The notes: generated by a model from the letters alone, not told the origin. A stretch of DNA of 64,000 nt from a virus (IMGVR_UViG_3300008259_003073); one strand, 5' to 3'. Positions 43,575 to 63,620 are shown, numbered from the stretch's first letter. Made by a program: numbers and translations.

Positions 43575-44354
43575 TTAAAAATAAATGTTCTTTTCTATGT
43601 AAAATTGTGGATAGTTTCCACTAAAACTAACATCCCATACTTTATATCTATTGTAATGGTTAAAATCACATAAAAATGCAAAATTATTTCTATATGGATA
43701 ATCGTAATTTAATTTTCGTAAATCATTAAAAACTATATGTGAATACTGTTTTTCATAATTATCAATAAAATCTTGAATTTCTTCAATTTTTAATTTTTTG
43801 TTTAATACAAACGCCATTTCAAATTCAAAATCTCCAATATGTTGATGTTCCTCTGGTCCAATCATACTACCACATCCGAACCAATAGAAAGAATTTTCGT
43901 ATTTCACTTTTTCACCATCTTCAAATTCAATAATTCCTACCAACTTTCCATTTTTATAGCATTTAATATTTCTTTCCAAAAAATGGTCACAAATCATAGC
44001 GTACTCATTGAATTCATTAGTTTCTTCTGGTAATAATCCGGTAAAAATTTGTTTTGAATACATTTCTGTTTTACCATCTATTTCTTTTGAAAACCAATAT
44101 GTAAATGCAATTGAAACAATTCCCAAATTATCTTTATAAGCAGAAATACCAGAATGCATTCCATTTCTGGCAATAGCAAATGATTCTTTATTTTGAGCTA
44201 CAGTATCAGGAAATATTTTAAACTTTAAGAATAAAGAAAAATCTTCATCCATATGTTTATCAATTCTAGATGATACGGAGTATCTACTTTCCGGCAAAAC
44301 GAAAAATATATTATCTTTGTTTACTCTTAAACTCATATTTTTATTGTTGAACAA
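43575..44354 (-). CDS. Stand-alone LamG-like domain protein
   Basis: DFSLFLKFK...CYKNGKLVG...FGCG...FVLNKKL..EEI pattern resembles the inserts of the neighbouring GT7 proteins. Confidence 0.5.
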   Translation of the reverse strand: MFNNKNMSLRVNKDNIFFVLPESRYSVSSRIDKHMDEDFSLFLKFKIFPDTVAQNKESFAIARNGMHSGISAYKDNLGIVSIAFTYWFSKEIDGKTEMYSKQIFTGLLPEETNEFNEYAMICDHFLERNIKCYKNGKLVGIIEFEDGEKVKYENSFYWFGCGSMIGPEEHQHIGDFEFEMAFVLNKKLKIEEIQDFIDNYEKQYSHIVFNDLRKLNYDYPYRNNFAFLCDFNHYNRYKVWDVSFSGNYPQFYIEKNIYF

Positions 44355-45748
44355 AAGTTATAAAATTCTTCTAATTCAGGAAATGTTTTACAAAAATCAG
44401 TTCCTCTACGTTTATCGTGGTTTGAAAAATATTGATAAAAACTATATCTATTTTTCATTTGTTGAGTCGCATCCTGTGGAGAAATCATCCAATCATAAAT
44501 TCTTTTTACTTTTTGAACCTCAACATCGGAGTAACCAATGTGTTTTGGGTCAAATGATGGAGCTGCGTAGTAAGTGATTAATTTAGCCTGGTCAGTTATA
44601 TATTTAGCATAATCAAATGGAAGTACTTGGACAGTTTGATGTAAAGGGTATCGTAGATATGATGAATCTAAAAACACTGCAGAATTCCAATATCTATCAG
44701 TGGATGCGTATACATCTTTTAATGTGTAAATATTATGAATTAATTGTTCATAATTAAAAACACTTAACGCATTATATGTCGACATGAATGTTATAATAGT
44801 TCTTGGGCATTTTGTAAGAATTTTATTTACATTATCCCAAAATTTATTAAATTCTAATCCAGTACGAATGTATTCTGCTTGCTCTCCCCATGTATCAACC
44901 GATGTAAATATGACAATTTCTTTTGCTCTACCTTCATCTTCTATTTTTTGTATCTTTTCGATTAATTTATCTATCAACTTATCTGGAACTCCCAAATTAG
45001 AATTAATAGCCAGTTTCAATTCAGTATTTGGATTTGGATGTTCTATGATATAATCAAGTACTCCCCAAGTATCTTTACTCATAAGAGGTTCTCCGCCTGT
45101 GATTCTAAATGTATGAAGGTCTCTATACAAATCAGGCCACCATTTCCAAAATGCTTCTACATATGGATTATGTTCTTTATTTGGAATTGGTAATTTATCT
45201 TCGTTTTTCATCCAATCAACGGAATTAAAATTATCCAAAGTTGGGTATGCACCATGCTTTTCAATTTCTTCCATCCACGCCGAACTATACGCAGGACCAC
45301 AATATGAACATTTGAAATTACACGCATTACTAAATGCAACTTCTACATATTTTGGATTAAAATCATCTCTCCAATCAGATTGAATAATGTCATTGATAAA
45401 TGGATAAGACCAACTTTCACCAGATTTAAATATTCTATCCGAAAATCTATCCGAATTATCTTCTACATTCCAACAATAATCACATTCAGAAGGTCTTGCT
45501 CCCTGTAACATTTCCTTTCTACGAAGTTTCTTATATCTCGTATTATGAAGTGCTGATGGGTTTCTAGCAATTTCAGTTTCTGAAATTTTATGTGTTTTGG
45601 GGTGGTGACATGAATGATTATGTCCACTTTGTAATTGTAGTGTAACTTGCGTCCATTTGGCAGCACACATACCAGGACCAACCACATTTAACTCGTCTTT
45701 AACGCGTAAATAAATTGGATTTTCACTATAAGTTTTATCTTCTGCCAT
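44333..45748 (-). CDS. Twitch-type radical SAM protein
   Basis: NACNFKCSYC; ITGGEP; N-terminal C..KW...HSCHH...ECDYCW cluster. Confidence 0.85.
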   Translation of the reverse strand: MAEDKTYSENPIYLRVKDELNVVGPGMCAAKWTQVTLQLQSGHNHSCHHPKTHKISETEIARNPSALHNTRYKKLRRKEMLQGARPSECDYCWNVEDNSDRFSDRIFKSGESWSYPFINDIIQSDWRDDFNPKYVEVAFSNACNFKCSYCGPAYSSAWMEEIEKHGAYPTLDNFNSVDWMKNEDKLPIPNKEHNPYVEAFWKWWPDLYRDLHTFRITGGEPLMSKDTWGVLDYIIEHPNPNTELKLAINSNLGVPDKLIDKLIEKIQKIEDEGRAKEIVIFTSVDTWGEQAEYIRTGLEFNKFWDNVNKILTKCPRTIITFMSTYNALSVFNYEQLIHNIYTLKDVYASTDRYWNSAVFLDSSYLRYPLHQTVQVLPFDYAKYITDQAKLITYYAAPSFDPKHIGYSDVEVQKVKRIYDWMISPQDATQQMKNRYSFYQYFSNHDKRRGTDFCKTFPELEEFYNFCSTIKI

Positions 45749-45752
45749 ATTT

Positions 45753-47219
45753 TTATTTTAAACAATGAACATTTATTAATTTGTGTTTATCAAAAATGAT
45801 TTTAGTACTGATATGTTTATACTTCATATTATTTATACCATCTTTTTTATAATCAATTTTACCTTGCTGCATTTCTAATACATATCTTCTTTCGTTTCTT
45901 GCAGTGGTTTCACCTTTAGCCCATTTTTCAATACCACCTTCTTTAATTAAACCTTCAGTTTCATGTGGTAAACAGAAAAATTTACCATCTCTTCTATGTG
46001 GTAGTATTACATGGGGTATTTGTATTTCTCTTTCTTCAATACCAACATTATACAATACACCATCGTTTAATTCGGCCTGGTCTATTACAAATTTATCATC
46101 AACTATTTCATCAAAGTTATAGTGTAATACCAAACTATCGGTTGAATACTGCTTATGTAATAAATTAACTTCTTCACCAGTTAACGCTCTATCCCACATT
46201 TTAATATCAGCTATTTCACCTTTAAAAAATGCGTTTGGTTCAAATGGTTCAACCGTTGTCGTATGCCCTACATAAAATGGTTCATTTCCATATCGTTTTA
46301 AGTTATACTGATATTCAAACGGTGATTGCGTACCCGTTCCATTTCTAGCATCACTTTCATTTCCATTTAGATAAAAATGCATTTTCTTTTCCAAATCATC
46401 AATTACCATCGTAACCCACGTCCATTCTCCCTCATACCTTTTAAACCATTGGTAGATATGTTCTCTATGAGCATTCCATAACATACCAGTATATGCCCTA
46501 CTATTGTTAAATGATAATCCCCAATCATAACCTGGTTTTCTGAATATAGGATATTCTACGAATTTTCTGTTTGAATCACCAATTAACCAAATAGGGACTT
46601 TTTCTATTTGTTGGTCTGCCTTTACTAATACAGAAATTGTATGTGAATTGGATATTGCTATTCTATTTTTTTCAGAAGATGGTATTTTGATGTATGAACT
46701 TTTACCATCAAATACTGCTACATTTTTTACTTTAGCGAAATCAATAGTTTGTTTATTAACATATCCTTCCATCACACATCTCCAAAACAAATCATCATCT
46801 TCCATGCCCCAATCCCAATAATCATTTGAATAACCATTGGTTGCTAAAACTTGCTCTTTTGTAAAAACAACCGCACCACCAAAGTATTCCTGATATTTTA
46901 ATTGGTAATCCGATTGTGAGATACGAACTGCAATGTGTTGTGGATTTTCCATAGGATATGAATAATCACAACTATCATCTTCGGGTACCATATCAATATC
47001 ATGCCAAACTATGTAATCACATCCATCATCAATTGCATGTTTTGCAGCAATGTTTTTCATCAATCCTCTATTGAATAGATATTCATCACACTGATGTGCA
47101 ATATAAATGGTGTGGTCAATTCCTTTCTTTGTTAAGAAATTAGTAACCCAAGGAACAAATTGATTCATATGTTCCTCTCTGTTTCTATATGGTACGCAGA
47201 CCCCTAACTTATGCCCCAT
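45753..47219 (-). CDS. GT7 (beta-1,4-galactosyltransferase-like) glycosyltransferase with inserted LamG domain
   Basis: VPYRNR, FNRG..KN, HDID, YFGG, NGYSNDYWDWGMEDDD; LamG insert; C-terminal H...N..R...DGINNMKY. Confidence 0.85.
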   Translation of the reverse strand: MGHKLGVCVPYRNREEHMNQFVPWVTNFLTKKGIDHTIYIAHQCDEYLFNRGLMKNIAAKHAIDDGCDYIVWHDIDMVPEDDSCDYSYPMENPQHIAVRISQSDYQLKYQEYFGGAVVFTKEQVLATNGYSNDYWDWGMEDDDLFWRCVMEGYVNKQTIDFAKVKNVAVFDGKSSYIKIPSSEKNRIAISNSHTISVLVKADQQIEKVPIWLIGDSNRKFVEYPIFRKPGYDWGLSFNNSRAYTGMLWNAHREHIYQWFKRYEGEWTWVTMVIDDLEKKMHFYLNGNESDARNGTGTQSPFEYQYNLKRYGNEPFYVGHTTTVEPFEPNAFFKGEIADIKMWDRALTGEEVNLLHKQYSTDSLVLHYNFDEIVDDKFVIDQAELNDGVLYNVGIEEREIQIPHVILPHRRDGKFFCLPHETEGLIKEGGIEKWAKGETTARNERRYVLEMQQGKIDYKKDGINNMKYKHISTKIIFDKHKLINVHCLK

Positions 47220-47220
47220 T

Positions 47221-48651
47221 TTACAATAATACTGATAGATGATGATAGTTATTCATTGATACATCATTTAATACCTGATATAAACAATTGTTTAAACCAT
47301 CCTTATCTGTGTTATATAATTTAGTTTTAATTTGATTTAAAAATCTTAATTGGTTTATACGAGTTTCTCTATGAACCCAGTTTTTCTCATTCCAACTATT
47401 TGTTTTATGAGATAATAATTTAAATAAAGATTTTCTTCTATACGGAACCGTCATTTCTCTACCTAATGATTCATGTGATTTTATGAAATGGCAATTATTA
47501 ATTTCACCATTATTACCGTTAAAAGATAAATCTAATAGAGTATTTTCTTTGTAGAATTTAAAATCATAATATAATTTTAAATGTTCCGCCGATTTATACG
47601 CTCTAAAATTTTCTAATAAAGAATTTTCCAAAACATTATCTGCTAATATAGAAATTTCTTTATCTTTCAATTTACAATCGTATATTGCAAATTCAGAAAT
47701 CATTCCATAAAAAAAGTTTGGGTTAGAATCCCTTTCAGGTGAACCAACGCCTAAATAAAAGTATTCTTCATCTGAATAATCCTTTGGAGCATTCTTTAGT
47801 TTTTCTGTACCTACTAATTCACCATCTTTATAAAAAGAAATTTCATTTTTTTTATAATCAAAAGTTAAACAAATTTGAGTAAAATGATTAGTTAGTATTT
47901 CTGAATTAATAGAAGTGCAATCATCGGTATCATCCCAAAAATCTACTTTATATCTTCTAAAAGAATTATAACTTATATTCGTATCGTATCCAGGTATTGA
48001 AAATACAGTATATTCATCATAATCATTATTTGGATTTGATATTATTTCATCAGGTTTAAATGTAATTATTATTGATGTATCTTTTTCAAAATCTAATAAG
48101 TCTTTCTTTAGTATCCTGATGTAAGAATCATTTCCACTAAAAGATAACCCATATAATTTTTTGGTTTCATTTTTACCAATAATTTTTGAATCCAATGGAA
48201 TGCTCTTTTGATTAACCCTAAATAAAAGGTCATCATCTTCAAACCCCCATCCCCAATATAAATTAGAATATCCATTTACTCTTTCAAATGTATCAGAACT
48301 AAACATAGTTACACCTCCAAAATAATCATCAAATGATAAGTTTTTGGATTTATCATATTCTAATTCAAAATTGGTTGCAAGGTGCATGGGTAATTCAGAA
48401 TAAGAATAATCAACCTCAATTGGTAGCATATCCACATCGTGAAATACAATATATCCACATCCTAATTCTTTTGCTTTGATATACCCAATATTTAATAACT
48501 TCCCTCTATTAAACGGTTTATCATCGGTCTGTTCAACTACGATAATCTCGTGTTTAATTTTTTTGGATTTTAAATATGAAGACATAGTTTCACCGAATCG
48601 TGCTAAATGCGATTCTCTATCTCTGTATGGTACAATTATTCCTAACTTCAT
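47221..48651 (-). CDS. GT7 glycosyltransferase with inserted LamG domain
   Basis: VPYRDR, FNRGKLLNIG, HDVD, YFGG, NGYSNLYWGWGFEDDD; LamG insert; DGLNN.LY. Confidence 0.85.
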   Translation of the reverse strand: MKLGIIVPYRDRESHLARFGETMSSYLKSKKIKHEIIVVEQTDDKPFNRGKLLNIGYIKAKELGCGYIVFHDVDMLPIEVDYSYSELPMHLATNFELEYDKSKNLSFDDYFGGVTMFSSDTFERVNGYSNLYWGWGFEDDDLLFRVNQKSIPLDSKIIGKNETKKLYGLSFSGNDSYIRILKKDLLDFEKDTSIIITFKPDEIISNPNNDYDEYTVFSIPGYDTNISYNSFRRYKVDFWDDTDDCTSINSEILTNHFTQICLTFDYKKNEISFYKDGELVGTEKLKNAPKDYSDEEYFYLGVGSPERDSNPNFFYGMISEFAIYDCKLKDKEISILADNVLENSLLENFRAYKSAEHLKLYYDFKFYKENTLLDLSFNGNNGEINNCHFIKSHESLGREMTVPYRRKSLFKLLSHKTNSWNEKNWVHRETRINQLRFLNQIKTKLYNTDKDGLNNCLYQVLNDVSMNNYHHLSVLL

Positions 48652-48656
48652 TTAGA

Positions 48657-48998
48657 TTATACTTTTTCTATATCTTTTTTAGGTCTTGCTCTACGAGGTG
48701 GCGGTAATTCTGCATCATTTTCAATTTGAGCAGGTTCGGTGGGAATACTTCCTTTAAAAGATGTTTCTGAACTAGATGATGACCCATTTTCTTTTGCAAT
48801 GTTGTAGAATTCATAAAGATAATACGCAACTCTATCACTCCATTCTGATTTGTTAATTTCTTCAAACCAAATAGTAAGTGCATCTAAAGAATTGGCAATT
48901 TTTTCCAATGCTTTAACTTTTCTAGTTTCCAATACTACCGATTCCAAATTTTGTTCAGGTGTAGTTGTTGTGTCAGATTGTAACTTAACTTTCGCCAT
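48657..48998 (-). CDS. Hypothetical protein
   Basis: 113 aa, in operon orientation between GT7 genes; no recognised motif. Confidence 0.45.
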   Translation of the reverse strand: MAKVKLQSDTTTTPEQNLESVVLETRKVKALEKIANSLDALTIWFEEINKSEWSDRVAYYLYEFYNIAKENGSSSSSETSFKGSIPTEPAQIENDAELPPPRRARPKKDIEKV

Positions 48999-49004
48999 TT
49001 ATTT

Positions 49005-50462
49005 TTATATTTTAATTTGATGCTTATAAACTCCTGTTTTAATTTCTTCTGTTGATACTAAATCATATGATAATGTATTTAATCCAAATTTATCAGTATC
49101 TAATATATCAGTTGCAATTTCATAAAAGAAAATACCTTCATTTTCTTCAAAAATATCATCTTTTACTTTCCAACTATAATTTTGTAATTTAGTGAATTTT
49201 TTTGAATTTTCCAAGATTTGAAACCGTCCATTTGATTGTTCTGGCATATCAAATTCATAAGACAGGTTTAATTGTTCAGAATACAATTCCTGATGTAACC
49301 CAGTTGATACTATTCTTGGATTTGAAAATGTTTTAGAATCATCTACATAAAAATCTCCAAACTTTTTATCAAATGGTACATTTATAACTGCTTCAAAATT
49401 TGTAGTTATTGTATCATTTATTGTTTTATACCCATCGGTGTATAGTTTTAATATTTCGGATTCTGCCAATGGGTAATCGAATAATAATAGGTTAGATATT
49501 TTGCCATTAAATGAATTTTTAAATGCCAAACTACCAATCCACAAATCTTTTCCTTTAAAGTCCATTAAATAATTTGGTAATCCATCCAGTGCTTGTACAA
49601 GTTTGCCATCAATGTATAGACCGGCTTTTTTCTTATCCATATCAACCTTTAATGACAGGTTTATCCATTGATTGACATGTGCTTTGTGTGAATACCACAT
49701 TTGATGTAAACTCTTATTATCATCCCACAATTGAACTACAATTGCATCGTTTTTCATAATAAAAATTCCCATATCATAACCTTGTTTCCCAATAATACAC
49801 GCATCGTTTGATTGATTATCGTTAATGAAAACATTCATTGATATTGTAAATGAATCTTCAAAAATATAATCGGTTGTTTTGCTTGCTCTTATAAACACAC
49901 AATTATTTTCATTTGAATCAAAAGGATATATTGTTTTTTTAATATATTTATTTACCTCTTTTACATCTGTTAAAACATGCGGTTTATATATATTTTTAGT
50001 AAAAAATCTCTTTGCAGATAATAATTTGTGTTTTTTTAATCTATATAAGAAATCTATCCAATGAAAAGAACCTCCCCAATAATCGTTACTGAACCCGTTT
50101 GCTTCGAAGAAATTTTCTTTTGTAATTTTAAAAGCTCCGCCTATCCAATGAGGATACGGTTTTAAATTTGCGGCTAAATGTGTTGGGTAGTATTCAAAAT
50201 CATAATTACACGATTCTTGTCTTGGTAGAATATCAATATCGTGGAATATATAATAATCGGAACGATTTTGTGTTATATCCGCACCAATATTACACAGTTT
50301 TCCATAATTAAAATAAACATCCGCATCTATTTGTTCGATGAAATGTATTTCGTAATCTATTTTATCTTTTAAAAAGTATTCCATGTGACCCACAAAGGTA
50401 TACAGGTCTTGTAAACGATTGGAGTACGGTACTATAATTGATAACTTTTTACTATTCGCCAT
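49005..50462 (-). CDS. Degenerate GT7-LamG paralogue
   Basis: VPY, FNYG..CNIG and HDID retained; WGxEDDD replaced by YWGGSFHWID; same LamG insert; FGLN.LSY. Confidence 0.75.
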   Translation of the reverse strand: MANSKKLSIIVPYSNRLQDLYTFVGHMEYFLKDKIDYEIHFIEQIDADVYFNYGKLCNIGADITQNRSDYYIFHDIDILPRQESCNYDFEYYPTHLAANLKPYPHWIGGAFKITKENFFEANGFSNDYWGGSFHWIDFLYRLKKHKLLSAKRFFTKNIYKPHVLTDVKEVNKYIKKTIYPFDSNENNCVFIRASKTTDYIFEDSFTISMNVFINDNQSNDACIIGKQGYDMGIFIMKNDAIVVQLWDDNKSLHQMWYSHKAHVNQWINLSLKVDMDKKKAGLYIDGKLVQALDGLPNYLMDFKGKDLWIGSLAFKNSFNGKISNLLLFDYPLAESEILKLYTDGYKTINDTITTNFEAVINVPFDKKFGDFYVDDSKTFSNPRIVSTGLHQELYSEQLNLSYEFDMPEQSNGRFQILENSKKFTKLQNYSWKVKDDIFEENEGIFFYEIATDILDTDKFGLNTLSYDLVSTEEIKTGVYKHQIKI

Positions 50463-50476
50463 CTTAATAACCTATT

Positions 50477-51325
50477 TTATATAGATATAATTTTTTTAAA
50501 TAATTGTTTCCATTTTGAGTATCCTGAATAATGATAAGTTGGTGATAATTCGAATCCAAATCTCACATCATCCAATGGTAATTTAAATCTAAATTTTGCC
50601 AATTCTCTATACATTTTTCGATATTCTTCTGAATATGAGTAATCTTTATTTATGTTTGCAACTGCTCTAATTCTTTCTCCACAAGTACTATCCCATTTAA
50701 AATGATGTACTTGCACACTGCATTTGTTAATTGGTGCAATCAGTGGATGATTCCAACCTTGCCATTTCCAAGTAGTATGTCCGTCTATTTTTGCATAATG
50801 CTGTCCGTTTGTAATTTCAACATACCCCTTTGCTATACAAATTTTATTAGGATTAGCACCACTTAACGGAAATCTAAAAAATCCTGCGTATGGAAACTTT
50901 TCAAATATGTCATCCGTATCTAATAATTCAACAAATTCACCATCCTCTCCAATTCTATCTATAAATCCACCTCTTACCATTTCCCATCCATTTACATCAC
51001 AATTTGATGTGATACTTCGTAATGAATCCGAATAGACATGGAACTCATCATCATCGGATATTACCCACCAATCGTTTGGATGAGTTGATTTTACTTCATT
51101 GTAAAGTCTTGTTACCTTTTCCCAATTATACTTCTCTTCAATTACCGTTTTTACAATTTTAGCATTTGGAAATTGAGATACTATGGTTTTAACTTCTGAT
51201 AAATTAGATTGCTCTTCCCAATCATATACAACAATATACATTTCATCCACTTTATCTTTGTAGTGGTTTAACATATGTTTTAATGTTGTTGTTCTAGAAC
51301 CTGTTACCGTAACTAATCTAATCAT
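50477..51325 (-). CDS. GT2-like (GT-A fold) glycosyltransferase
   Basis: LKHMLNHY...VDEMYIVVYD; WWVISDDDEF; HHFKW. Confidence 0.7.
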   Translation of the reverse strand: MIRLVTVTGSRTTTLKHMLNHYKDKVDEMYIVVYDWEEQSNLSEVKTIVSQFPNAKIVKTVIEEKYNWEKVTRLYNEVKSTHPNDWWVISDDDEFHVYSDSLRSITSNCDVNGWEMVRGGFIDRIGEDGEFVELLDTDDIFEKFPYAGFFRFPLSGANPNKICIAKGYVEITNGQHYAKIDGHTTWKWQGWNHPLIAPINKCSVQVHHFKWDSTCGERIRAVANINKDYSYSEEYRKMYRELAKFRFKLPLDDVRFGFELSPTYHYSGYSKWKQLFKKIISI

Positions 51326-52080
51326 TTTCTTTTAACTAATGTTAATCCAGTTGATGATGGTTTATTTTTTACTATTCCAAAATTGAATAAATCAAATGTT
51401 TCCCACTTTGGATTATCTTTAAGTTCTTTAGCAAATGTAATTGGTCCATGCCAATCATCAAAATCACCTCTATCTTTTACTTCGTTTGTAACAATGTAAC
51501 TATCTGCATAATTAGGGTCCGTATCGTGGATAGAAATGATACCATTTGGAGAAAGTAACTGCGAATATAGTTCAAAATCCTCTTTTACATTCTCATAACT
51601 ATGACCAGCATCTATATGTAAATAATCTATCTGAATATCATTAAGAATAAAGTAATTATGAAAAGCGTCTTCTGTTGTTTTATTAATAATTCGTGGATGA
51701 AATGTTCTTCTGAAAAATGATTCTTCTCTAAACCAATTTACATGTCCACCAATACCGTTCATAGCATCAACAACATAAGTAACACCAATATCTCCCCAAT
51801 TTAAATCAGAATTTCCTTCAAAAATGCCTTGTTTATGTAAATCGTAACGAGCCTGTGTCATTAATCTAGGTACAAATCCTCCACCTGAACCTAAACATAC
51901 ACAAGTTTTTGCTCTCATATACTGAATAAGAGAATAGATTATTAAACCATCTCCTAAATGATTATCAGTTGCTCCATGTGACCATCTATACGGAACTGGA
52001 ACTTCTTCTTGCTCCTGATATTCGTTATATTCTAAATTGTTTGTTAGATAATTCTTTAAGTATTGTAAATCTTGTAGCAT
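51322..52080 (-). CDS. Class I SAM-dependent methyltransferase
   Basis: CLGSGGG; IDYLHIDAGHSYENVKEDF...L.PNGIISIHD. Confidence 0.85.
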   Translation of the reverse strand: MLQDLQYLKNYLTNNLEYNEYQEQEEVPVPYRWSHGATDNHLGDGLIIYSLIQYMRAKTCVCLGSGGGFVPRLMTQARYDLHKQGIFEGNSDLNWGDIGVTYVVDAMNGIGGHVNWFREESFFRRTFHPRIINKTTEDAFHNYFILNDIQIDYLHIDAGHSYENVKEDFELYSQLLSPNGIISIHDTDPNYADSYIVTNEVKDRGDFDDWHGPITFAKELKDNPKWETFDLFNFGIVKNKPSSTGLTLVKRK

Positions 52081-57392: not shown

Positions 57393-60300
57393 TTACCTAT
57401 TTAATAACTTTTTAATTGATATTATTTCATTTTTTAATTCAACAATTTCACTATTTTGTTCTTTTATTCCCTCAATCAATAAAGCAATTATCTTTTCATA
57501 ATCAACTCCTAAATACCCATCTCCTTTTTCTCTTACAACTTCTGGTAAAACTTCTTGAATTTCTTGTGCTAAAACCCCAACCTCTTGAATATTTTTTGGT
57601 TTGTTAGAAATACCGTTCCAATTAAAAGTATATCCTCCAATTTTTTTAATCTTATCCATTGGGTTTGAAATGGGAATAATATTTTCTTTTAATCTTTTAT
57701 CAGAACTAGATAGTGCGTACATATCACCAGTTGCTCTAATATCACCATTAATAGTTAATACCCCACTTGATATTGAGATTTCACCAACTGATAAATTTGT
57801 TATTGCACCATTTGTTGCACTTAATGTTGAGAATGTACTCAAACCTGTAAAGTTTGATGACCCTTTTACTGTCAGAAAATTGGTAGAAGATAAACTGGTA
57901 TCAACTTTGAATTGGTTTGACCCATACAAAGATTGTAAACCTGCTTGGCAAATTTCAACACTTCTTGGAGCACTACCTACCACTGCGTTAACACCACTAA
58001 AGTTTGGTGTTTTTAATGTTATACTTTCACCACTAACTAAATAATTTACACCAATTTGATGTTTTATTCTAACATCATATGTTCCGCCTGAAGGGATTAT
58101 TATGGATGCTCCACCAGTAGAAGTTATACTTCTTTCATAATTTGGATTATTATAAAAAACATATCCAGATGCAATTAACGCTTCCCCTACACCTACAACT
58201 TCCAAACTTATCCAATGATAGGTCTGAACGTAAGTAGCAGTAGATATTTGCATTAAGTACGAAGTACCAAGAGAGTTTGAAATCATTGCCGATATTTCCG
58301 CATCTGTCATAGAAACCTCTGTTCCAGCTGCAACAACACCCGTTGATACGGTATTTGAATTAAAAGTAGTACTCGCTTCAGCTTGTAAGTTTTGTCCAAA
58401 TACAGGACCGTTTCTTGTTGTTGAACTTGTGCCACTAAAATCGGATAAAGCGGATGTAGAACTTGCTATTCTAAATGAAGTATCATCCGTCATAATTACT
58501 GCGTTTCTAGACCCATCTTTTATGAAGAATCCTAAATCGGATGAATTTATTTCAATTGTACCAGTACTAGTTTTACTTATCTTATCATTAGAAATTGACC
58601 AACCTCCAATTGTAGCACCTAATGCGGATAATTCACTTACTGTTATTTTATTAGCGGTTACCGCGCCAGCTGCTATTGTGGTTGCGGTTACTGCGTCAGC
58701 TGCAATTTTACCTGCAATAATTGCACCAGCTGCTATTGTGGTTGCAGTTACTGCGTCAGCTGCAATTTTACCTGCAACTATTGCATTTGCAACTATTTTA
58801 CCAGAAGTAACTGCATCTGCTGCTATTTTACCTTCCGTTACTGCATTAGCCGCTAATTCTGCATTTGTTACGGTACTTAAAGTTGCCAATCCACCTAATC
58901 CAGTAACTTGTCCAGTTGATACGGTGTTTTGAGTTGCTAATGTTCCAAGACCAGTAACTTGACCAGTTGTAACACTATTTGCAGTTGCTAATGTTCCCAA
59001 TCCAGTTACTACAGTATTTGGAACTGTACTACCAACACTTAAATTACCAACTATGTTTAGATTTGTTCCATCCCAAGTTAAAGAATTTGTTGCAGATTTT
59101 AAAGAAAGTTTGGAAACTCCACTATCTTGACCTAAAAATATACCAGTATTATTAAACCCTTGAGAGGATTGTCCAATCGAAATATAAGGATTTGTAGAAC
59201 CACCCGCTATAGTTATATTTGCCGAACTTAATGTGGTTGAAGTCGTACCAATGTTTATTGTATTTTGAACAAATGAATCTTCAAATATACCTATTTTAGC
59301 TGCAACAAAGAAATCTTGTGCACCCAATGATATCCAACCCGTTTGTGATGATTGATGTGGTGCACCATCCGCGACGTTTCCTGTAGCTGAAAGATGTTGT
59401 CTAGTGGTTGCGTAGTAAGTATTATACGGTGGTGAGCCAGTTGAACTCCATAGAACAGTATCTCTTCTACCTGTCCCAGTTGTTAACCCATCTGAAAATT
59501 GGTATGTTCTACCACTTGTCCAAACTCCAGTATGAACTACACCAGGTCCAGTTTGGCCATTGGCACCATTTGCACCATTTGCTCCCGTTGCTCCCGTTGC
59601 TCCCGTTGCTCCGGTATTACCGATTCCACTTACTCCAACTTCAAAATCAATAGTTCTGCCAGTAAATGCAGTACCTTCAGAGTTTCTGTAAGAAATAGTT
59701 ATTACACCACTTGTACCACTAATACTAGTTGGAGTGTTTGGGGTGATTGTACCATTGCCATTATTTGTAGCGTTTGTGACACCAGTTATATTAAAAGTAT
59801 TTGCTCCACTTGTATTGTATGTATAATTTGACCCACCTTCGTTTACTACAACGGTTACATTACTAGGTGTCCCTATACCAACTAACGAACCACTAACTAC
59901 GGTTTGTGATTGTGGATTTGCAGAAATGTTTACAACGGGTGCAGAACTTCTTACTCTAGAAATCGTAGCAGTTACATTCTTTGTACCTGAAACACCTTCA
60001 CTATCGGTGAAATTGACAGGAATTGTTACTGTTCCACTATCGGATGTCATCGAAGATGCATTACTTGAAAACACTATTGTATTAGAAGAAACACTACCCG
60101 CTAATCCATTTGTATAAGTAGGTGTTCCTAATGATGTAAATCTACTTATACCACCTTCTAATGCAGTTACAGTTAGGGTTTGTGGTGTAGCTGAACCACT
60201 ACCACGAGAATTTGATTGGATTGATTGTGCAGTTGGTGAAACTGAAACTTCCACATTTGGTACTCCTCTCTTACTTTTTGAATAGGTTACCACCTTTGTT

Positions 60301-62633
60301 ACATCAGTTGTATCTCCTGCTCCATCTTTATATCTTACTAATAACGTTAAAGAACCACTATCGGCAGTTAAAGTAGTAATACCATAAGTTGCATCATCAG
60401 GTGTTGAATCGTTTGCAATACAATTCACAGCAGTTGCAGAAATTACATCAAATCTATTATTTGTTGATAATCCTTCCTCTCTTGTAATATCTTCTCCACC
60501 AACTTTAACACTTACCGAACCACTTGTTGCTGCAAATGAAGCACTTGCTACAAATCCAGTTGATAATGCTGGTAATGTTGCGTTCTCATTTGTAAGATTT
60601 ACCGATAATCCATCTAATATTTTTACAGGAGTTACTTTTATAGCATCTGAAAATTGATTACCAAATTGGTCTGAACCCGAAATGAAGTATGTAGTTTCGC
60701 CTGTTAAAAATGGATAAGATGCACCCGATAATGTGTAGGTATCTACTCCGTTTGTCGCATTTGTATCTACAAATGTTAACGGTGGTTTACCACTACCCGA
60801 ATTTACGGTCAATGGAGTTGTTGCCGATGCTAAATTCTTACGTTTAGCTTCGATTGTTATTATTTGACCTACTGGGTTTAAAGATAAATCAGTTGCTTTA
60901 TAAATGAATTGGTTTGTATTAGATGTTACAAATAATCCAGGTGCATTTTCACCATCTTCAAATCTGTATACAGTTTCAAATTGTTCCAATCCCTCACAAG
61001 ATGCAGTATATACAATTGAACCAACTAATACTGATGATATACTACCACTAAAATTTGCAATAGTTAGTGTTGCACCCGCATCACTTACATTTGTTAATGT
61101 TCCAGGATAAGTTCCTCCGTATGATGATGGGTCTATGTAATTTCCTAAAGTGTCAAACGCAGACCTACCGTATGTAACAGAACCTGTTAAATTTGATTTT
61201 GAAACCTTAAATCCCAATTGTTGAAAAGCAGGATTACCAAATGAACCACTAGAAAATCTAAATGCAGTTCTATCCGAATCAAATGTTAATAATTTAGTGG
61301 TTATTCCTGCAGTTCCACCTGTAAAATTTGCACTTTGTGTTACCGATACTGGAACAAAATTATTGTTCACATCGTAAAATTCAAATTTAAAATTATATGT
61401 TTCATTACCAATAACTGTAGGCATTGTTGTAATAAACGAAATCTCATCTGGTGAAAATGCGGTATCTTCGGAAAGTCTTAAACTTATATTTCCAACATGC
61501 CATTCTCCTTGTGATTGAGAAAAATATAAAGAACCACTTTCAAAATCAGAATCTACTTTAAAAGGAACTACTGTATCTAATAAATTTTTTGTAGGAGTTA
61601 TTCCATTTAATGTAGTAATTAAAACATCACCCCCATCGGACCCACTTATGTATATTCCTAAATTACTTGCAGTAGATGATGAATAGAACGCATCCAAATT
61701 TAACTCGTAAGTATTTGATGCTTTTATATTCAATGATTGTGAATAAGTTAATAATCCACTTCCATTCAATTTCAATCCACCCTCAACTCTACTAGATGTT
61801 AATTCAGTGGTTAATGAACCAGTGTTCCAAAATAAAGGCAATACTTCGGATGTAAATGTACCAGTGTTACCTATAACACTTCCACTTAATTGTGTAGTTG
61901 TTAATAATTCTTTTGATTCTACTAATATATCTTGTATTAAATTAAAATCAGAAATATCTCCTTCAGAAGTTCTAAATACTTTTACTCTTTTTACATCACC
62001 CGCGAATGTTTCTAAATTTGAAAGTTTTATATCAGCAAATGATTGATTTACTCCAGAATCAACTTTTGAACCACTTTCTATTCTGTATATTGGGGATAGT
62101 ATTTCGTTAATAGTGGCAGTTGGTCTTTTATAAAAACGAATTTTGGTAGTATTTGCTAATGTAGGATTAACATTAACAGTTCTTTGCCACTTTACATTGT
62201 AAGTACCCTGCCAATCAATTGGTATAGGTGTTAATAACCCGTTGCCATCATAGTATGAACTTAATTCACCTAGTATTGTAATTGTACATGGACCATACGC
62301 GGTTGTATCTGGATAAACATATACTGCTACAACTTTTGATACTCCTTCGTAGTATTCTGTAACAAATGTTTCACCATCTATGGAAGAGGATACTATACCT
62401 TCTCCAGGTTCGTGATATATAGTATTTCCCGCAGCATCTTTAATTTCAATTTTAACTAAAGTATCGGCTACCAATTCTTTTGAACCTGCTATTAAAAATG
62501 CGTTTTTACCACCAGTAAATGCATCAGGTATTTCTGTTACATTGAAGTAAGTACTGTTTGGAGCACTATCTACTACGAATGTATTATACTTGTCTAAATT
62601 TTCAGCAAAAAGCGTTTTCTTTATTACGGCCAT
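57393..62633 (-). CDS. Baseplate/tail fibre protein with collagen-like and GKIAA repeats and C-terminal S74 intramolecular chaperone
   Basis: C-terminal SSDKRLKENI...GYTFNW...GVLAQEIQEVLPEVV...VDYEKIIALLIEGIKE; internal repeats; N-terminal domain of about 440 aa. Confidence 0.85.
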   Translation of the reverse strand: MAVIKKTLFAENLDKYNTFVVDSAPNSTYFNVTEIPDAFTGGKNAFLIAGSKELVADTLVKIEIKDAAGNTIYHEPGEGIVSSSIDGETFVTEYYEGVSKVVAVYVYPDTTAYGPCTITILGELSSYYDGNGLLTPIPIDWQGTYNVKWQRTVNVNPTLANTTKIRFYKRPTATINEILSPIYRIESGSKVDSGVNQSFADIKLSNLETFAGDVKRVKVFRTSEGDISDFNLIQDILVESKELLTTTQLSGSVIGNTGTFTSEVLPLFWNTGSLTTELTSSRVEGGLKLNGSGLLTYSQSLNIKASNTYELNLDAFYSSSTASNLGIYISGSDGGDVLITTLNGITPTKNLLDTVVPFKVDSDFESGSLYFSQSQGEWHVGNISLRLSEDTAFSPDEISFITTMPTVIGNETYNFKFEFYDVNNNFVPVSVTQSANFTGGTAGITTKLLTFDSDRTAFRFSSGSFGNPAFQQLGFKVSKSNLTGSVTYGRSAFDTLGNYIDPSSYGGTYPGTLTNVSDAGATLTIANFSGSISSVLVGSIVYTASCEGLEQFETVYRFEDGENAPGLFVTSNTNQFIYKATDLSLNPVGQIITIEAKRKNLASATTPLTVNSGSGKPPLTFVDTNATNGVDTYTLSGASYPFLTGETTYFISGSDQFGNQFSDAIKVTPVKILDGLSVNLTNENATLPALSTGFVASASFAATSGSVSVKVGGEDITREEGLSTNNRFDVISATAVNCIANDSTPDDATYGITTLTADSGSLTLLVRYKDGAGDTTDVTKVVTYSKSKRGVPNVEVSVSPTAQSIQSNSRGSGSATPQTLTVTALEGGISRFTSLGTPTYTNGLAGSVSSNTIVFSSNASSMTSDSGTVTIPVNFTDSEGVSGTKNVTATISRVRSSAPVVNISANPQSQTVVSGSLVGIGTPSNVTVVVNEGGSNYTYNTSGANTFNITGVTNATNNGNGTITPNTPTSISGTSGVITISYRNSEGTAFTGRTIDFEVGVSGIGNTGATGATGATGANGANGANGQTGPGVVHTGVWTSGRTYQFSDGLTTGTGRRDTVLWSSTGSPPYNTYYATTRQHLSATGNVADGAPHQSSQTGWISLGAQDFFVAAKIGIFEDSFVQNTINIGTTSTTLSSANITIAGGSTNPYISIGQSSQGFNNTGIFLGQDSGVSKLSLKSATNSLTWDGTNLNIVGNLSVGSTVPNTVVTGLGTLATANSVTTGQVTGLGTLATQNTVSTGQVTGLGGLATLSTVTNAELAANAVTEGKIAADAVTSGKIVANAIVAGKIAADAVTATTIAAGAIIAGKIAADAVTATTIAAGAVTANKITVSELSALGATIGGWSISNDKISKTSTGTIEINSSDLGFFIKDGSRNAVIMTDDTSFRIASSTSALSDFSGTSSTTRNGPVFGQNLQAEASTTFNSNTVSTGVVAAGTEVSMTDAEISAMISNSLGTSYLMQISTATYVQTYHWISLEVVGVGEALIASGYVFYNNPNYERSITSTGGASIIIPSGGTYDVRIKHQIGVNYLVSGESITLKTPNFSGVNAVVGSAPRSVEICQAGLQSLYGSNQFKVDTSLSSTNFLTVKGSSNFTGLSTFSTLSATNGAITNLSVGEISISSGVLTINGDIRATGDMYALSSSDKRLKENIIPISNPMDKIKKIGGYTFNWNGISNKPKNIQEVGVLAQEIQEVLPEVVREKGDGYLGVDYEKIIALLIEGIKEQNSEIVELKNEIISIKKLLNR
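58667..58785. repeat. Near-perfect 60-bp tandem duplication within GKIAADAVT repeats
   Basis: cagctgctattgtggttgc(g/a)gttactgcgtcagctgcaattttacctgcaa... at 58667 and 58727. Confidence 0.9.
59545..59627. repeat. 9-bp tandem repeats encoding collagen-like (G-X-Y)n
   Basis: gctcccgtt x3 plus (t/g)gcaccatt copies, giving GNTGATGATGATGANGANGANGQTGPG. Confidence 0.85.
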
Positions 62634-62736: not shown

Positions 62737-62910
62737 ATGAAATACGCAATGTTACAAATCAAAAAAGAAACCCACGAACTTCTCAAAAATTATTGTGAAG
62801 AACATGGATTTAAAATGGGAAGTTTAGTTGAAAACTTAATTAAGAAACATGTTGGTGTTCCTAAAATTCAAAACGGTGTGTTAAAAGCAGATAAAATTAA
62901 ATCTTTTTAA
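62737..62910 (+). CDS. Ribbon-helix-helix DNA-binding protein, 57 aa (not in the ORF track)
   Basis: MKYAMLQIKKETHELLKNYCEEHGFKMGSLVENLIKKH...: alternating beta-strand followed by two helices joined by a G turn. Its stop overlaps the convergent stop at 62907. Confidence 0.7.
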   Translation: MKYAMLQIKKETHELLKNYCEEHGFKMGSLVENLIKKHVGVPKIQNGVLKADKIKSF

Positions 62911-63620
62911 TCCTCGTGTGAGTAGAATGATACTATATTATATTTAATATCATTCTTTACTTTTTCAACTTCATGGAATAAATTTTTATCAGAATCTAAT
63001 ACTACAAAATTAGGAAAAATTGGATTTACTTTAATATCATTTCCATTTAAATCATGTAATATCAAATGCCCACCGTTTGATTCACCCCATTCATTATTTA
63101 AAAAATACAAAAATACACATATTCTGTTGTTAGGTTGTCCATCATCGTGTAATTTTATTTCGCAACCTTCATTGTAAAATTGCAGTTTTGTATTTTCAGT
63201 AAATCTACCAAACGATTTTTCAGGATAGTATTTTTTTACAAAGTTTTTTTGAAAATTTCTTAATACTTCATTGTTTATTTTTCCATTTATTTCTGAATTC
63301 ATAGAGGTACCAAATACCCAAGTTGGATAAAATCCACATTCTTCAATTTTTTTCAATTGATATTGATGTGCTTTATTATAAACATAATCGGCAGTATTTA
63401 AATCTTTATCATTTTTTAAATACCCATCATACACCAATTCTTCCATATATGATTGGTCGTTGTATTTAAACCAATAATCATATCTAGAATGTCTTACAAA
63501 ATTTGTATTATCTATATAATCTTTTATTTGTTTAAACCCATCTAAATCGATTAGTTCGGAATAATCTTCCAACTTACCGTAAATGTATCCACTATTTCTG
63601 TAATTTTCTATACTTTCCAT
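62907..63620 (-). CDS. 2OG-Fe(II) oxygenase, prolyl-4-hydroxylase-like
   Basis: KLHDDG (HxD); VFLYFLNNEW...GGHL; LFHEV (distal His). Confidence 0.8.
   Translation of the reverse strand: MESIENYRNSGYIYGKLEDYSELIDLDGFKQIKDYIDNTNFVRHSRYDYWFKYNDQSYMEELVYDGYLKNDKDLNTADYVYNKAHQYQLKKIEECGFYPTWVFGTSMNSEINGKINNEVLRNFQKNFVKKYYPEKSFGRFTENTKLQFYNEGCEIKLHDDGQPNNRICVFLYFLNNEWGESNGGHLILHDLNGNDIKVNPIFPNFVVLDSDKNLFHEVEKVKNDIKYNIVSFYSHED

Follow-up and report, generated by a model that had tools for sequence, protein, structure and literature searches.

A conserved phage glycan-assembly module with paired GT7 glycosyltransferases, a LamG domain nested in their catalytic fold, and a degenerate third paralog

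An uncultured aquatic phage with a 202-kb genome (IMGVR_UViG_3300008259_003073) encodes a conserved glycan-assembly module, fed by neighbouring nucleotide-sugar genes, in which two GT7-family glycosyltransferases, GT7B and GT7C, each carry a LamG domain nested inside the catalytic fold and form an ancient, ancestral and non-redundant pair. A third protein of the same build, GT7A, is a lineage-specific paralog that was once an active enzyme, and is now a predicted pseudo-enzyme. The analysis covered a stretch of 64,000 nucleotides (the window), in which an earlier note had reported three GT7 ORFs; all three were found where that note had placed them, on the minus strand (Table 1).

Table 1. Features of the module and its surroundings, in positions of the window.
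Feature	Coordinates	Strand	Evidence
Free-standing LamG protein, 253 aa from ATG at 44336	43575..44336	-	BLASTP to GT7 inserts E 9e-7; hhalign; model
N_Twi_rSAM radical SAM enzyme, N-terminal twitch domain	44333..45748	-	NF033640 E 2.9e-105; CNFKCSYC
GT7C, 488-aa GT7 glycosyltransferase, full catalytic residue set	45753..47219	-	Pfam, clade logo, tree
LamG insert of GT7C, residues ~160-412, approximate	45984..46742	-	Laminin_G_3 E 1.4e-13; BLASTP to GT7B insert E 2e-13
GT7B, 476-aa GT7 glycosyltransferase, full catalytic residue set	47221..48651	-	Pfam, AF2 model, clade logo
LamG jelly-roll insert of GT7B, residues ~160-400	47452..48174	-	DSSP of model; structure matches Z 22
Small 113-aa protein, conserved ~45-aa helical core	48657..48998	-	Between GT7A and GT7B; 57-homologue alignment
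GT7A, third GT7-LamG paralog, 485 aa, catalytically degenerate	49005..50462	-	Pfam, clade logo
LamG insert of GT7A, residues ~150-410, approximate	49233..50015	-	Laminin_G_3 E 8e-12; BLASTP to GT7B insert E 5e-7
282-aa GT2-like protein, module core member	50477..51325	-	Weak Glyco_tranf_2_4 match, E 2e-4
Class I SAM methyltransferase (Methyltransf_24), module core member	51322..52080	-	Pfam E 2.9e-12
Ser/Thr-rich tail fibre, 1746 aa, C-terminal Peptidase_S74 intramolecular chaperone	57393..62633	-	PF13884 E 3.7e-16, residues 1644-1701

The nested arrangement that had been proposed, with LamG between the WGxEDDD motif and the C-terminal segment, is recovered in GT7A, GT7B and GT7C by Pfam and in the AF2 model of GT7B. 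The Glyco_transf_7N profile matches all three proteins (E 4e-14 to 1e-19; scores of 52.8-70.7 against a cut-off of 27), as does Laminin_G_3 (51.7, 51.2 and 46.0 bits against 27.6), and Glyco_transf_7C scores 66 in GT7C, 62 in GT7B and, just below the cut-off of 23, 22.5 in GT7A. The Glyco_transf_7C match covers only profile positions 2-60 of 78, all of them before the insert, a jelly roll of ~240 aa that separates the WGxEDDD catalytic helix from the His/lid/DGLN tail. Completion of the GT-A fold by the C-terminal segment, a further point of the earlier note, is evident from two co-linear matches of the family profile to b4GalT1 (profile 2-150 and 424-473), the second of which covers the final 50 residues of that enzyme, DGLNSLTY included, and from superposition of the GT7B model (pLDDT 93.5, pTM 0.87) on bovine b4GalT1 (1tvy_A 180-398; 210 aligned residues, Z 26.5, rmsd 2.2 A), in an alignment that spans model positions 1..476, i.e. 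both halves of the fold.

In a structure search with the model, GT7B residues 164-398 match the LamG domain of PAPP-A and BACOVA_03559 at Z 22, in agreement with the proposed identity of the insert, and pentraxins at Z 17-19. The fold alone is no proof of sugar binding: the ligands of many LamG domains are proteins instead. Two long beta strands (154-172 and 388-402 by DSSP of the model) tie the insert to the GT7 core, and in the model the LamG has grown out of a beta-hairpin between the catalytic-base helix and the His/lid/DGLN tail, a hairpin that we take to sit just before the metal-binding Met/His of b4GalT1. The insertion point and the high pTM would place the LamG beside the lid and the acceptor side of the active site. 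No description of a GT7 enzyme with a lectin-fold domain nested beside the mobile lid was found in the searchable literature.

GT7B reads PYRDR, FNRG, HDVDM, WGWGFEDDD, H415 and DGLN at the family motifs, and GT7C reads YWDWGMEDDDLF, HDIDM (its DxD motif), CLPH and DGIN. Across 64 GT7B and 65 GT7C sequences E138, D139 and H415 are invariant, with R10, R12, FNRG, HDxDM and D141 invariant or nearly so, and D139 of GT7B aligns with D211 of b4GalT7, the Asp that was mutated in the inactive D211N structures. The catalytic domain starts at residue 2, leaving room for neither anchor nor stem, and sequence and model together identify GT7B and GT7C as predicted CAZy GT7 glycosyltransferases of the inverting, metal-dependent GT-A type, soluble and cytoplasmic. 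The sole hint as to the donor is a Tyr, conserved in the phage GT7s and aligned with the YFGG motif of b4GalT1, which by analogy hints at a non-acetylated hexose; this reading presumes that the b4GalT1 residue concerned is Tyr289. In the tree GT7B and GT7C are separate old clades, and GT7C directly follows GT7B in 60 of 62 loci. Thus, the earlier description of the enzymes as a triplicate is correct for this genome but not for the ancestral state, since GT7B and GT7C are the universal pair and GT7A is present at 10 of 55 loci, all in one subclade.

The same note had called these enzymes eukaryote-like, a label that does not survive comparison: the GT7 core shares 40-52% identity with short bacterial GT7s as against ~30-35% with animal b4GalT1/7. 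With animal b4GalT1 and b4GalT7 (PDB 1TVY, 1O0R, 4IRQ, 3LW6; 30-35% identity) the phage proteins share the GT-A fold (Z 26, rmsd ~2 A), the PxRxR, FNR, DxD and WGxEDDD motifs (catalytic Asp included), the His at the lid hinge, the Tyr of YFGG and the C-terminal strand DGLNxL(T/K)Y, but they are cytoplasmic, lack a membrane anchor or stem, and carry the nested LamG. The short bacterial GT7s (190-320 aa), found in Chlamydiota, Planctomycetota, Verrucomicrobiota, Bacteroidota, Pseudomonadota and other phyla, are the closest relatives of the catalytic core (the above identity being over residues 2-156) and share a G-x-(F/Y)-x-x-L-x-H ... DGL(S/N)xL tail, which in them, without a LamG insert, directly follows the catalytic helix. 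To our knowledge, no function has been characterised for these short proteins.

The full GT7N, LamG_3, GT7C architecture also occurs, rarely, in bacteria, in ORFs of 493-496 aa from a Spirochaetaceae MAG (L095, whose ORF is 500 aa from a TTG start) and from 'bacterium bin_47' (L094), and these proteins group with clade C in the tree. Unlike the phage enzymes they are single copies without the partners of the phage module, and lie in cellular glycan clusters with GT2, GT4 and ABC transporter genes, the latter being ABC-2 permeases with an ATPase in one cluster and fused ABC exporters in the other. A catalytic domain joined to a lectin is familiar from the polypeptide GalNAc-transferases (GT27), where a ricin-type lectin domain appended to a GT-A domain steers acceptor choice. 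There, the lectin is a C-terminal beta-trefoil on a flexible linker, whereas in the phage GT7s it is a nested jelly roll on a rigid two-stranded ribbon.

In the case of GT7A, the third copy was said to keep DxD and to have lost EDDD, and it indeed reads HDIDI and WGGSFHWID, the latter in place of the WG(W/D)WGxEDDD of GT7B and GT7C. In GT7B numbering the changes are R10S, R49Y, W135G, E138H, D139W and H415N, such that GT7A has PYSNR at PxRxR, FNYG at FNR and Asn at the lid His position, and lacks the catalytic Asp, the mobile Trp, the lid His and two Arg that presumably line the UDP-sugar pocket in b4GalT1. GT7A forms its own clade, sister to GT7C, and intermediates lead stepwise to its motif (FEDLD, YHDLD, FADLD and FEYLD, then FHWxD), which is kept across at least 45 orthologue clusters and in orthologues of 96% down to 58% identity. 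Its dN/dS is 0.109 against L010 and 0.100 against L014, as compared with 0.07-0.13 for GT7B and GT7C, and conservation is as high in its dead core as in its LamG. A dN/dS of ~0.1 despite the lost catalytic residues is indicative of a maintained pseudo-enzyme, and GT7A can be read as a GT7 member by descent that is predicted from its lost residues to be inactive. Purifying selection supports a putative non-catalytic role and, as it extends over the whole length of the protein, GT7A probably serves in binding rather than catalysis, as a lectin-like subunit or as a partner of GT7B/GT7C. Nonetheless, GT7A still has its DxD and the last Asp, with a conserved His in place of the Glu, and may instead use an altered catalytic mechanism.

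The six genes of the module run in the order methyltransferase, GT2-like, small helical protein, GT7B, GT7C and N-twitch radical SAM, and are found in more than 500 IMG/VR contigs, with the nested design itself, always within this module, also making up dozens of large protein clusters whose members are all viral. Both the architecture and the gene order are shared by 62 non-identical viral loci, and are therefore not due to chance. The methyltransferase and the GT2-like gene are each present in 54 of 55 loci, start and stop codons overlap in relatives, and the module sits in a late structural gene string, where a large protein homologous to the tail fibre is encoded upstream in 30 of 40 loci, as the fibre gene is here. 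The neighbouring nucleotide-sugar cluster includes SDRs, RmlC, a split TPP enzyme and further rSAMs. The module is absent from GenBank phages, no cultured phage was found with these genes, and neither GT7-LamG proteins nor the six-gene module appear in PMC7029224 or PMC12619734.

The twitch radical SAM and the stand-alone LamG that had been noted downstream are both present, in the same translationally coupled gene string. The former matches NCBIfam NF033640 (N_Twi_rSAM) at 352.6 bits against a cut-off of 170, over profile positions 3-398 of 398, and has CNFKCSYC as its CX3CX2C motif. A homologue of this enzyme (rSAM471) lies within the next ~3 kb after the GT7B-GT7C pair in 60 of 61 loci, which makes it plausible that a radical SAM step is functionally linked to the pair. 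The free LamG, present in 27 of 60 loci, aligns with insert positions 173-388 (hhalign probability 99%, E 3.7e-18), and its model (pLDDT 94) matches the PAPP-A LamG at Z 18.9. The small protein, present in at least 50 of 60 loci, is always encoded immediately before GT7B and, in an alignment of 57 homologues, combines the core LLExRKVKALEKIANSLDALTxWFEEIDKxEW with a variable C-terminus that in many cases ends KPKDPTI(N/D)G. It has no match in Pfam, NCBIfam or PHROG, and in the Atlas only viral hypothetical clusters were found.

As to function, the explanation that we tentatively favour is that the GT7B/GT7C pair, within the conserved module, adds successive hexoses to a LamG-held acceptor, most likely the tail fibre, with GT7A as a non-catalytic subunit. 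Here, GT7B and GT7C would in turn each add a different beta-linked hexose to a shared acceptor. The LamG, fixed rigidly next to the lid, would keep this acceptor in place, and GT7A would act as the binding subunit described above. The acceptor would be the Ser/Thr-rich tail fibre, whose gene is just upstream, or a glycan that the fibre already bears, the main alternative being a host envelope polysaccharide. The fibre is suggested by the position of the module, which abuts the gene for a fibre with a Peptidase_S74 domain, and by the lack, in the phage genome, of any initiating transferase of the Bac_transf or WecA type and of any ABC-2 permease. There is a precedent in mycobacteriophages, whose virion proteins are glycosylated by phage glycosyltransferases (Freeman et al. 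2023, cited in PMC12619734). These enzymes belong to families other than GT7. Against the fibre, the bacterial GT7-LamG genes beside ABC transporters point to polysaccharide assembly as the putative cellular role of the family, although such clusters fit polysaccharide assembly as well as protein glycosylation.

It is possible, if rather doubtful, that the module instead remodels the host surface, acting during infection on lipid-linked O-antigen or capsule intermediates of the host, with LamG binding the growing polysaccharide chain, and that the outcome is superinfection exclusion or progeny kept from re-adsorbing. The phage has no initiating or export genes of its own, and the host initiating transferase and exporter would thus be needed. 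The bacterial relatives lie among GT2/GT4 genes and ABC transporters, in one case with two ABC-2 permeases and an ABC ATPase, in keeping with such a role. In addition, T4-like marine myophages carry large, variable host-recognition-cluster islands within the structural region that mix tail-fibre genes, glycosyltransferases and radical SAM cassettes, much as at this locus, and the glycosyltransferases of these fibre islands in pelagimyophages have been read as modifiers of the host O-chain (PMC7029224), an interpretation that counts against the fibre as acceptor. The linkage of the module to a tail-fibre gene in a late structural gene string, the solubility of the enzymes, which have no membrane anchor, and the ~25 kb of phage genome spent on sugar genes all speak against remodelling of the host, but none of these is decisive.

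That GT7A, GT7B and GT7C assemble into an obligate hetero-oligomer for elongation, physically tied to the radical SAM enzyme and with GT7A as a scaffold or specificity subunit in the manner of alpha-lactalbumin, seems unlikely. The concept of a non-catalytic protein that alters or enables a glycosyltransferase is shared with lactose synthase (b4GalT1 plus alpha-lactalbumin) and with Cosmc, the pseudo-glycosyltransferase partner of C1GalT1 in another family, and GT7A, as well as the small protein encoded beside GT7B, could be likened to such partners; the fold of alpha-lactalbumin is unrelated to either. The maintenance of GT7A with a dead core as constrained as its LamG, translational coupling in relatives, and strict co-occurrence of GT7B and GT7C would all suit a complex. 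However, GT7A is absent from 45 of 55 loci, where GT7B and GT7C evidently work without it, and the default for GT-A enzymes is the sequential action of independent glycosyltransferases. Still less probable is another target altogether, either phage DNA or the small protein, which in a RiPP-like scheme would serve the rSAM as carrier or precursor. Such schemes would be consistent with the highly conserved core and variable C-terminus of the small protein, with the 4-6 rSAM paralogs at some loci and, for DNA, with the DNA-hypermodifying phage glycosyltransferases cited in PMC12619734. On the other hand, the phage genome encodes no thymidylate-synthase-family hydroxymethylase, there are few conserved Ser/Thr in the small protein core (the Ser-rich tail seen here is not conserved), and the neighbouring nucleotide-sugar genes fit glycan building.

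A wider form of the favoured reading, which we consider improbable as a whole, is that the six-gene module represents an unrecognised, widespread phage system for decorating tail fibres or virions with a glycan of unusual sugars, in which the nested LamG would act as acceptor reader and, in some lineages, the dead GT7 and the free LamG as lectin-like product readers. If so, the glycans of aquatic phages would help to set host range or would protect the virions, and the nested LamG would offer a case from nature of acceptor targeting built into a GT-A fold.

GT7 enzymes are textbook enzymes of the animal Golgi, and here their catalytic machinery is rebuilt in a phage around a nested lectin-fold domain, which probably sits close to the mobile lid. 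With more than 500 IMG/VR contigs, this design is not a curiosity of one genome, and the module that carries it is unstudied. GT7A decayed step by step, and its intermediates, which end in a conserved dead copy, document how a pseudo-enzyme came about. Were the module to glycosylate virions or to remodel the host surface, it would bear on host range and phage-host recognition in large aquatic phages.

The glycosyltransferases GT7A, GT7B and GT7C each carry a LamG domain nested within the catalytic fold, an architecture that is real and well supported. All three proteins match Glyco_transf_7N and Laminin_G_3 in Pfam, with the Glyco_transf_7C match ending at profile position ~60 of 78, immediately ahead of the LamG insert. 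In the case of GT7B, residues 2-151 match b4GalT7 and b4GalT1 (phmmer, E 1e-24 to 1e-26). A phmmer search of the PDB with the C-terminal 82 residues alone returned nothing significant, and the homology of this segment to b4GalT1 is visible only by family profile and by structure. The family profile, built from 127 members, matches b4GalT1 twice and co-linearly, at positions 2-150 on the N-terminal catalytic part and at 424-473 on the last 50 residues, the latter match including N..RF...DGLNSLTY. The AF2 model of GT7B (pLDDT 93.5, pTM 0.87) superposes on residues 180-398 of bovine b4GalT1 over 210 residues that range from 1 to 476 of the model (VIA-align, Z 26.5, rmsd 2.2 A). Since the part preceding the insert comprises only ~156 residues, at least ~54 of the 210 aligned residues belong to the C-terminal segment; a local alignment by Foldseek reaches no further than the fold's N-terminal half, and it is VIA-align that bridges the insert. 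Residues 164-398 of the model form LamG/pentraxin jelly rolls, with matches to the PAPP-A LamG and BACOVA_03559 at Z 22 and to pentraxins at Z 17-19. The earlier note had placed a LamG domain inside three near-tandem GT7 proteins and had the C-terminal segment completing the GT-A fold, and both proposals were borne out. Matches of GT7B to a PHROG 'tail terminator' and of GT7A to a family of no known function were weak (E above 1e-4), fell on the LamG part, and were disregarded.

Features of the GT7 gene cluster and its surroundings (window positions)
Feature	Position	Strand	Remark
GT7A	49005-50462		first of six genes in transcription order
113-aa ORF (small protein)	48657-48998	-	second
GT7B	47221-48651		third
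GT7C	45753-47219		fourth
Radical SAM gene	44333-45748		fifth
253-aa ORF (free LamG)	43575-44336		sixth
Tail fibre	57393-62633		1746 aa, Ser/Thr-rich, Peptidase_S74 chaperone domain; upstream flank of the sugar island
1731-aa protein	25152-30347	-	opposite edge of the island
2OG-Fe(II) oxygenase	62907-63620	-	prolyl-hydroxylase type; directly upstream of the tail-fibre gene

The site of insertion can be placed by comparison with short bacterial GT7s, in which the fold is uninterrupted and the motif G-x-(F/Y)-x-x-L-x-H ... DGL(S/N)xL(x)Y follows soon after the catalytic helix. The phage tails SLFKLLSH...DGLNNCLY (GT7B) and GKFFCLPH...DGINNMKY (GT7C) align to this motif, and thus the insert site is the hairpin directly upstream of the Met/His that bind metal in b4GalT1 and of its mobile lid. 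In the GT7B model the insert is connected to the core through a pair of long strands (154-172 and 388-402), and its residues D212, G221, D223, Y274 and D276 make up a conserved patch on the LamG. The inserts of the three proteins are mutually homologous, so that the insertion is probably older than the duplications. Short, insert-free GT7s occur in many phyla and stand closer to the phage cores (40-52% identity) than the animal enzymes do (30-35%); the label 'Eukaryote-like' given in the earlier note therefore does not hold as a statement of ancestry, and reflects which members of the family have been studied.

The copies differ in the state of their active sites. Among the distinct sequences of related loci, 64 of B-type and 65 of C-type, PYRxR, FNRG, HDxDM, W-G-(W/D)-W-G-x-E-D-x-D and the tail His are invariant or nearly so, and the catalytic Asp, D139 of GT7B, aligns with the Asp that is replaced in 4LW3 and 4M4K, structures of the inactive D211N form of b4GalT7. 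As had been noted from the sequence, GT7A retains DxD and has lost EDDD, and its changes are conserved across orthologues: in GT7B numbering, R10 is S or T, R49 is Y (an invariant FNYG signature), W135 is G, E138 is H, D139 is W and the lid His (H415) is N, states that are kept in orthologues of 96% to 58% identity. Remoter members of the FNYG lineage have lost less and less of the motif: a contaminant contig has FEDLD and locus L073 YHDLD, with further intermediates FADLD (~32% identity) and FEYLD (~44% identity). It follows that the lineage was active at first and degenerated in steps. GT7A is being maintained rather than lost: its degenerate core and its LamG are equally conserved, and dN/dS values of 0.109 and 0.100 against two relatives (GT7B, 0.073 and 0.128; GT7C, 0.069 and 0.077) indicate purifying selection. 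Catalysis by an altered mechanism, relying on the conserved His and the final Asp, is possible.

A search for the GT7N-LamG-GT7C architecture, as the earlier note had suggested, returned many metagenomic matches. Among scored candidates (90% clusters), 2786 proteins were found at E <= 1e-5, and in the best 120 of these Laminin_G_3 and Glyco_transf_7C are present in all but one (P0072) and Glyco_transf_7N in most. Insert plus tail are matched by ~45 full-length representatives at 50% identity, more than 24 Atlas clusters with 50 or more members apiece are exclusively viral, and IMG/VR holds at least 541 confirmed stretches. By tblastn, GT7C and GT7B had no match in 50,697 GenBank phage records, E 0.01 included; blastn of the region against GenBank phages gave one match only, of 323 bp within the radical SAM gene (window 45037-45359, 67.7% identity to a hypothetical gene of Ralstonia jumbo phage RsoM2USA). 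The exception P0072, a 506-aa 'unnamed protein product' of Cyprideis torosa at NCBI, is a chimeric gene model from a eukaryotic assembly in which the N-terminal halves of three GT7s, of A-, B- and C-type, are fused, with the LamG parts seemingly skipped; most likely a phage contig is present in the ostracod assembly and was mistaken for a gene with introns. Likewise, a 315-kb contig of the very fragmented assembly GCA_013573075.1 (NCBI; locus L007), whose module has a 697-aa radical SAM fusion, could be the genome of a jumbo phage lying unnoticed in a non-phage assembly.

Gene context was counted at 62 loci with distinct B proteins, the denominators differing by feature. GT7C directly follows GT7B in 60 of 62, a homologue of the radical SAM protein lies within ~3 kb after the pair in 60 of 61, a methyltransferase upstream and a GT2-like protein within the module are each present in 54 of 55, and the small protein directly precedes GT7B in at least 50 of 60. 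The free LamG (27/60) and GT7A (10/55) are less constant. The six genes from GT7A through the free LamG are closely packed, and in relatives the genes from the GT2-like one through the radical SAM gene overlap by 1-4 bases. In a tree from core columns only, A, B and C each form a clade of their own, A being sister to C (SH-aLRT 85). Taken together, the counts and the tree identify as the conserved unit the B-C pair within a six-gene module made up of the methyltransferase, the GT2-like protein, the small protein, GT7B, GT7C and the radical SAM enzyme; the triplicate described in the earlier note is present in the window, and is a lineage-specific elaboration.

The other genes of the operon fit their initial description as a twitch radical SAM enzyme and a stand-alone LamG. 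The former is N_Twi_rSAM (NCBIfam, 352.6 bits against a cut-off of 170). In some loci (L024/L025/L042, L087, L088 and others) four to six radical SAM paralogs stand straight after the GT7 pair, and the GT2-like gene of L024/L025/L042 has been relocated behind GT7C, with the small gene still attached to GT7B. The 253-aa protein is a free LamG specifically related to the GT7 inserts, as evidenced by BLASTP against the GT7B insert (E 9e-7), by hhalign against insert positions 173-388 (probability 99%, E 3.7e-18), and by a model (pLDDT 94) whose best structural matches are those of the insert. The small protein has no family match in Pfam, PHROG or NCBIfam, and the Atlas gives no known family. Its helical core of ~45 residues, LLExRKVKALEKIANSLDALTxWFEEIDKxEW, is 57-79% identical, compared with about 41-47% for GT7B outside the close clade, and its conservation exceeds that of the neighbouring enzymes (loci L004-L089). 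The C-terminus varies by clade, ending KPKDPTI(N/D)G in many homologues, and in the GT7A-bearing clade as a longer basic tail with RPKKDIExV; the association of this tail with GT7A represents one phylogenetic event, and is thus no evidence of co-evolution.

The prokaryote search, with one genome per species, gave full-length matches in two groups. Four contigs (L090-L093) with the whole phage module are binned in Flavobacteriales, Flavobacteriaceae and Pelagibacterales MAGs, and one spans 248 kb; these look like phage contigs mis-binned into MAGs, with possible hosts. A few other matches are single copies in a cellular context. For instance, the copy of a Spirochaetaceae MAG (L095) neighbours two ABC-2 permeases, an ABC ATPase, GT4, GT2, an FkbM methyltransferase and a radical SAM gene, and that of L094 adjoins a GT2 gene and two ABC exporters, which rules out a phage-exclusive family.

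The phage is tailed, with a T4-superfamily-type major head protein, a portal and a large terminase. Its capsid protein shares 54% identity with the counterparts in Flavobacterium phage immuto, Microcystis phage Mel-JY01 and an uncultured phage of 484 kb. For phages with the module, this similarity and the mis-binned MAG contigs hint at Flavobacteriales or SAR11-type hosts. The window represents bases 99568-163567 of a 201,940-bp IMG/VR record that CheckV rates complete, with a GC content of ~30% and essentially all genes on the minus strand. The GT7 genes lie in a sugar island of ~25 kb (about 32-57 kb of the window) whose content includes three radical SAM enzymes, three SDR epimerase/dehydratases, RmlC, a split TPP enzyme, a HAD phosphatase, a methyltransferase and a GT2-like protein. 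The layout is like that of the 'host recognition cluster' islands of T4-like marine myophages, which mix tail fibres, glycosyltransferases and radical SAM cassettes (PMC7029224). The tail fibre has a short collagen-like run, GATGATGATGANGANGANG, and the adjacent oxygenase matches PF13640 (E 9e-11). At the start of the 1731-aa protein, residues 17-153 match a cytidylyltransferase-like domain (PF01467, E 4e-5), so that a giant enzyme of several domains is more probable than a fibre.

With respect to function, GT7B and GT7C would both be active and non-redundant, adding two successive residues, and the LamG, rigidly tied to the lid-adjacent hairpin, would present the acceptor. The Tyr aligned with that of the b4GalT1 YFGG motif is kept in both proteins; in b4GalT1 this residue, Tyr289, disfavours N-acetylated donors. 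A complex of all three GT7s, with GT7A as scaffold or specificity subunit, was proposed in the earlier note and, as an obligate one, seems unlikely, a judgement on organisation that is separate from the choice of target; an oligomer that would act on a virion acceptor is plausible.

As to the target, the best explanation, held tentatively, is the fibre or virion, because of the linkage to the fibre gene (a large-fibre homologue is upstream in 30 of 40 loci), the soluble, anchorless nature of the enzymes, and a genome with neither an initiating phosphoglycosyl transferase nor an ABC-2 permease. Searches of the genome for Bac_transf, Glycos_transf_4 and ABC2_membrane genes found none, and a self-contained lipid-linked pathway was rejected on that account. 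That the enzymes instead modify a host polysaccharide, for which the genomic context of the bacterial homologues (L094, L095) and the published reading of such islands (PMC7029224) both speak, is somewhat less likely, and a target other than these two is improbable. DNA glycosylation via hydroxymethyl-pyrimidines was rejected on the lack of a Thymidylat_synt-family gene in the genome, which is weak evidence. Literature searches on the Glyco_transf_7N/7C pair, on Glyco_transf_7N in phage, and on GT7, LamG and bacteriophage gave nothing relevant. The GT7-LamG proteins are members of a known enzyme family in an unstudied and widespread phage glycan module.
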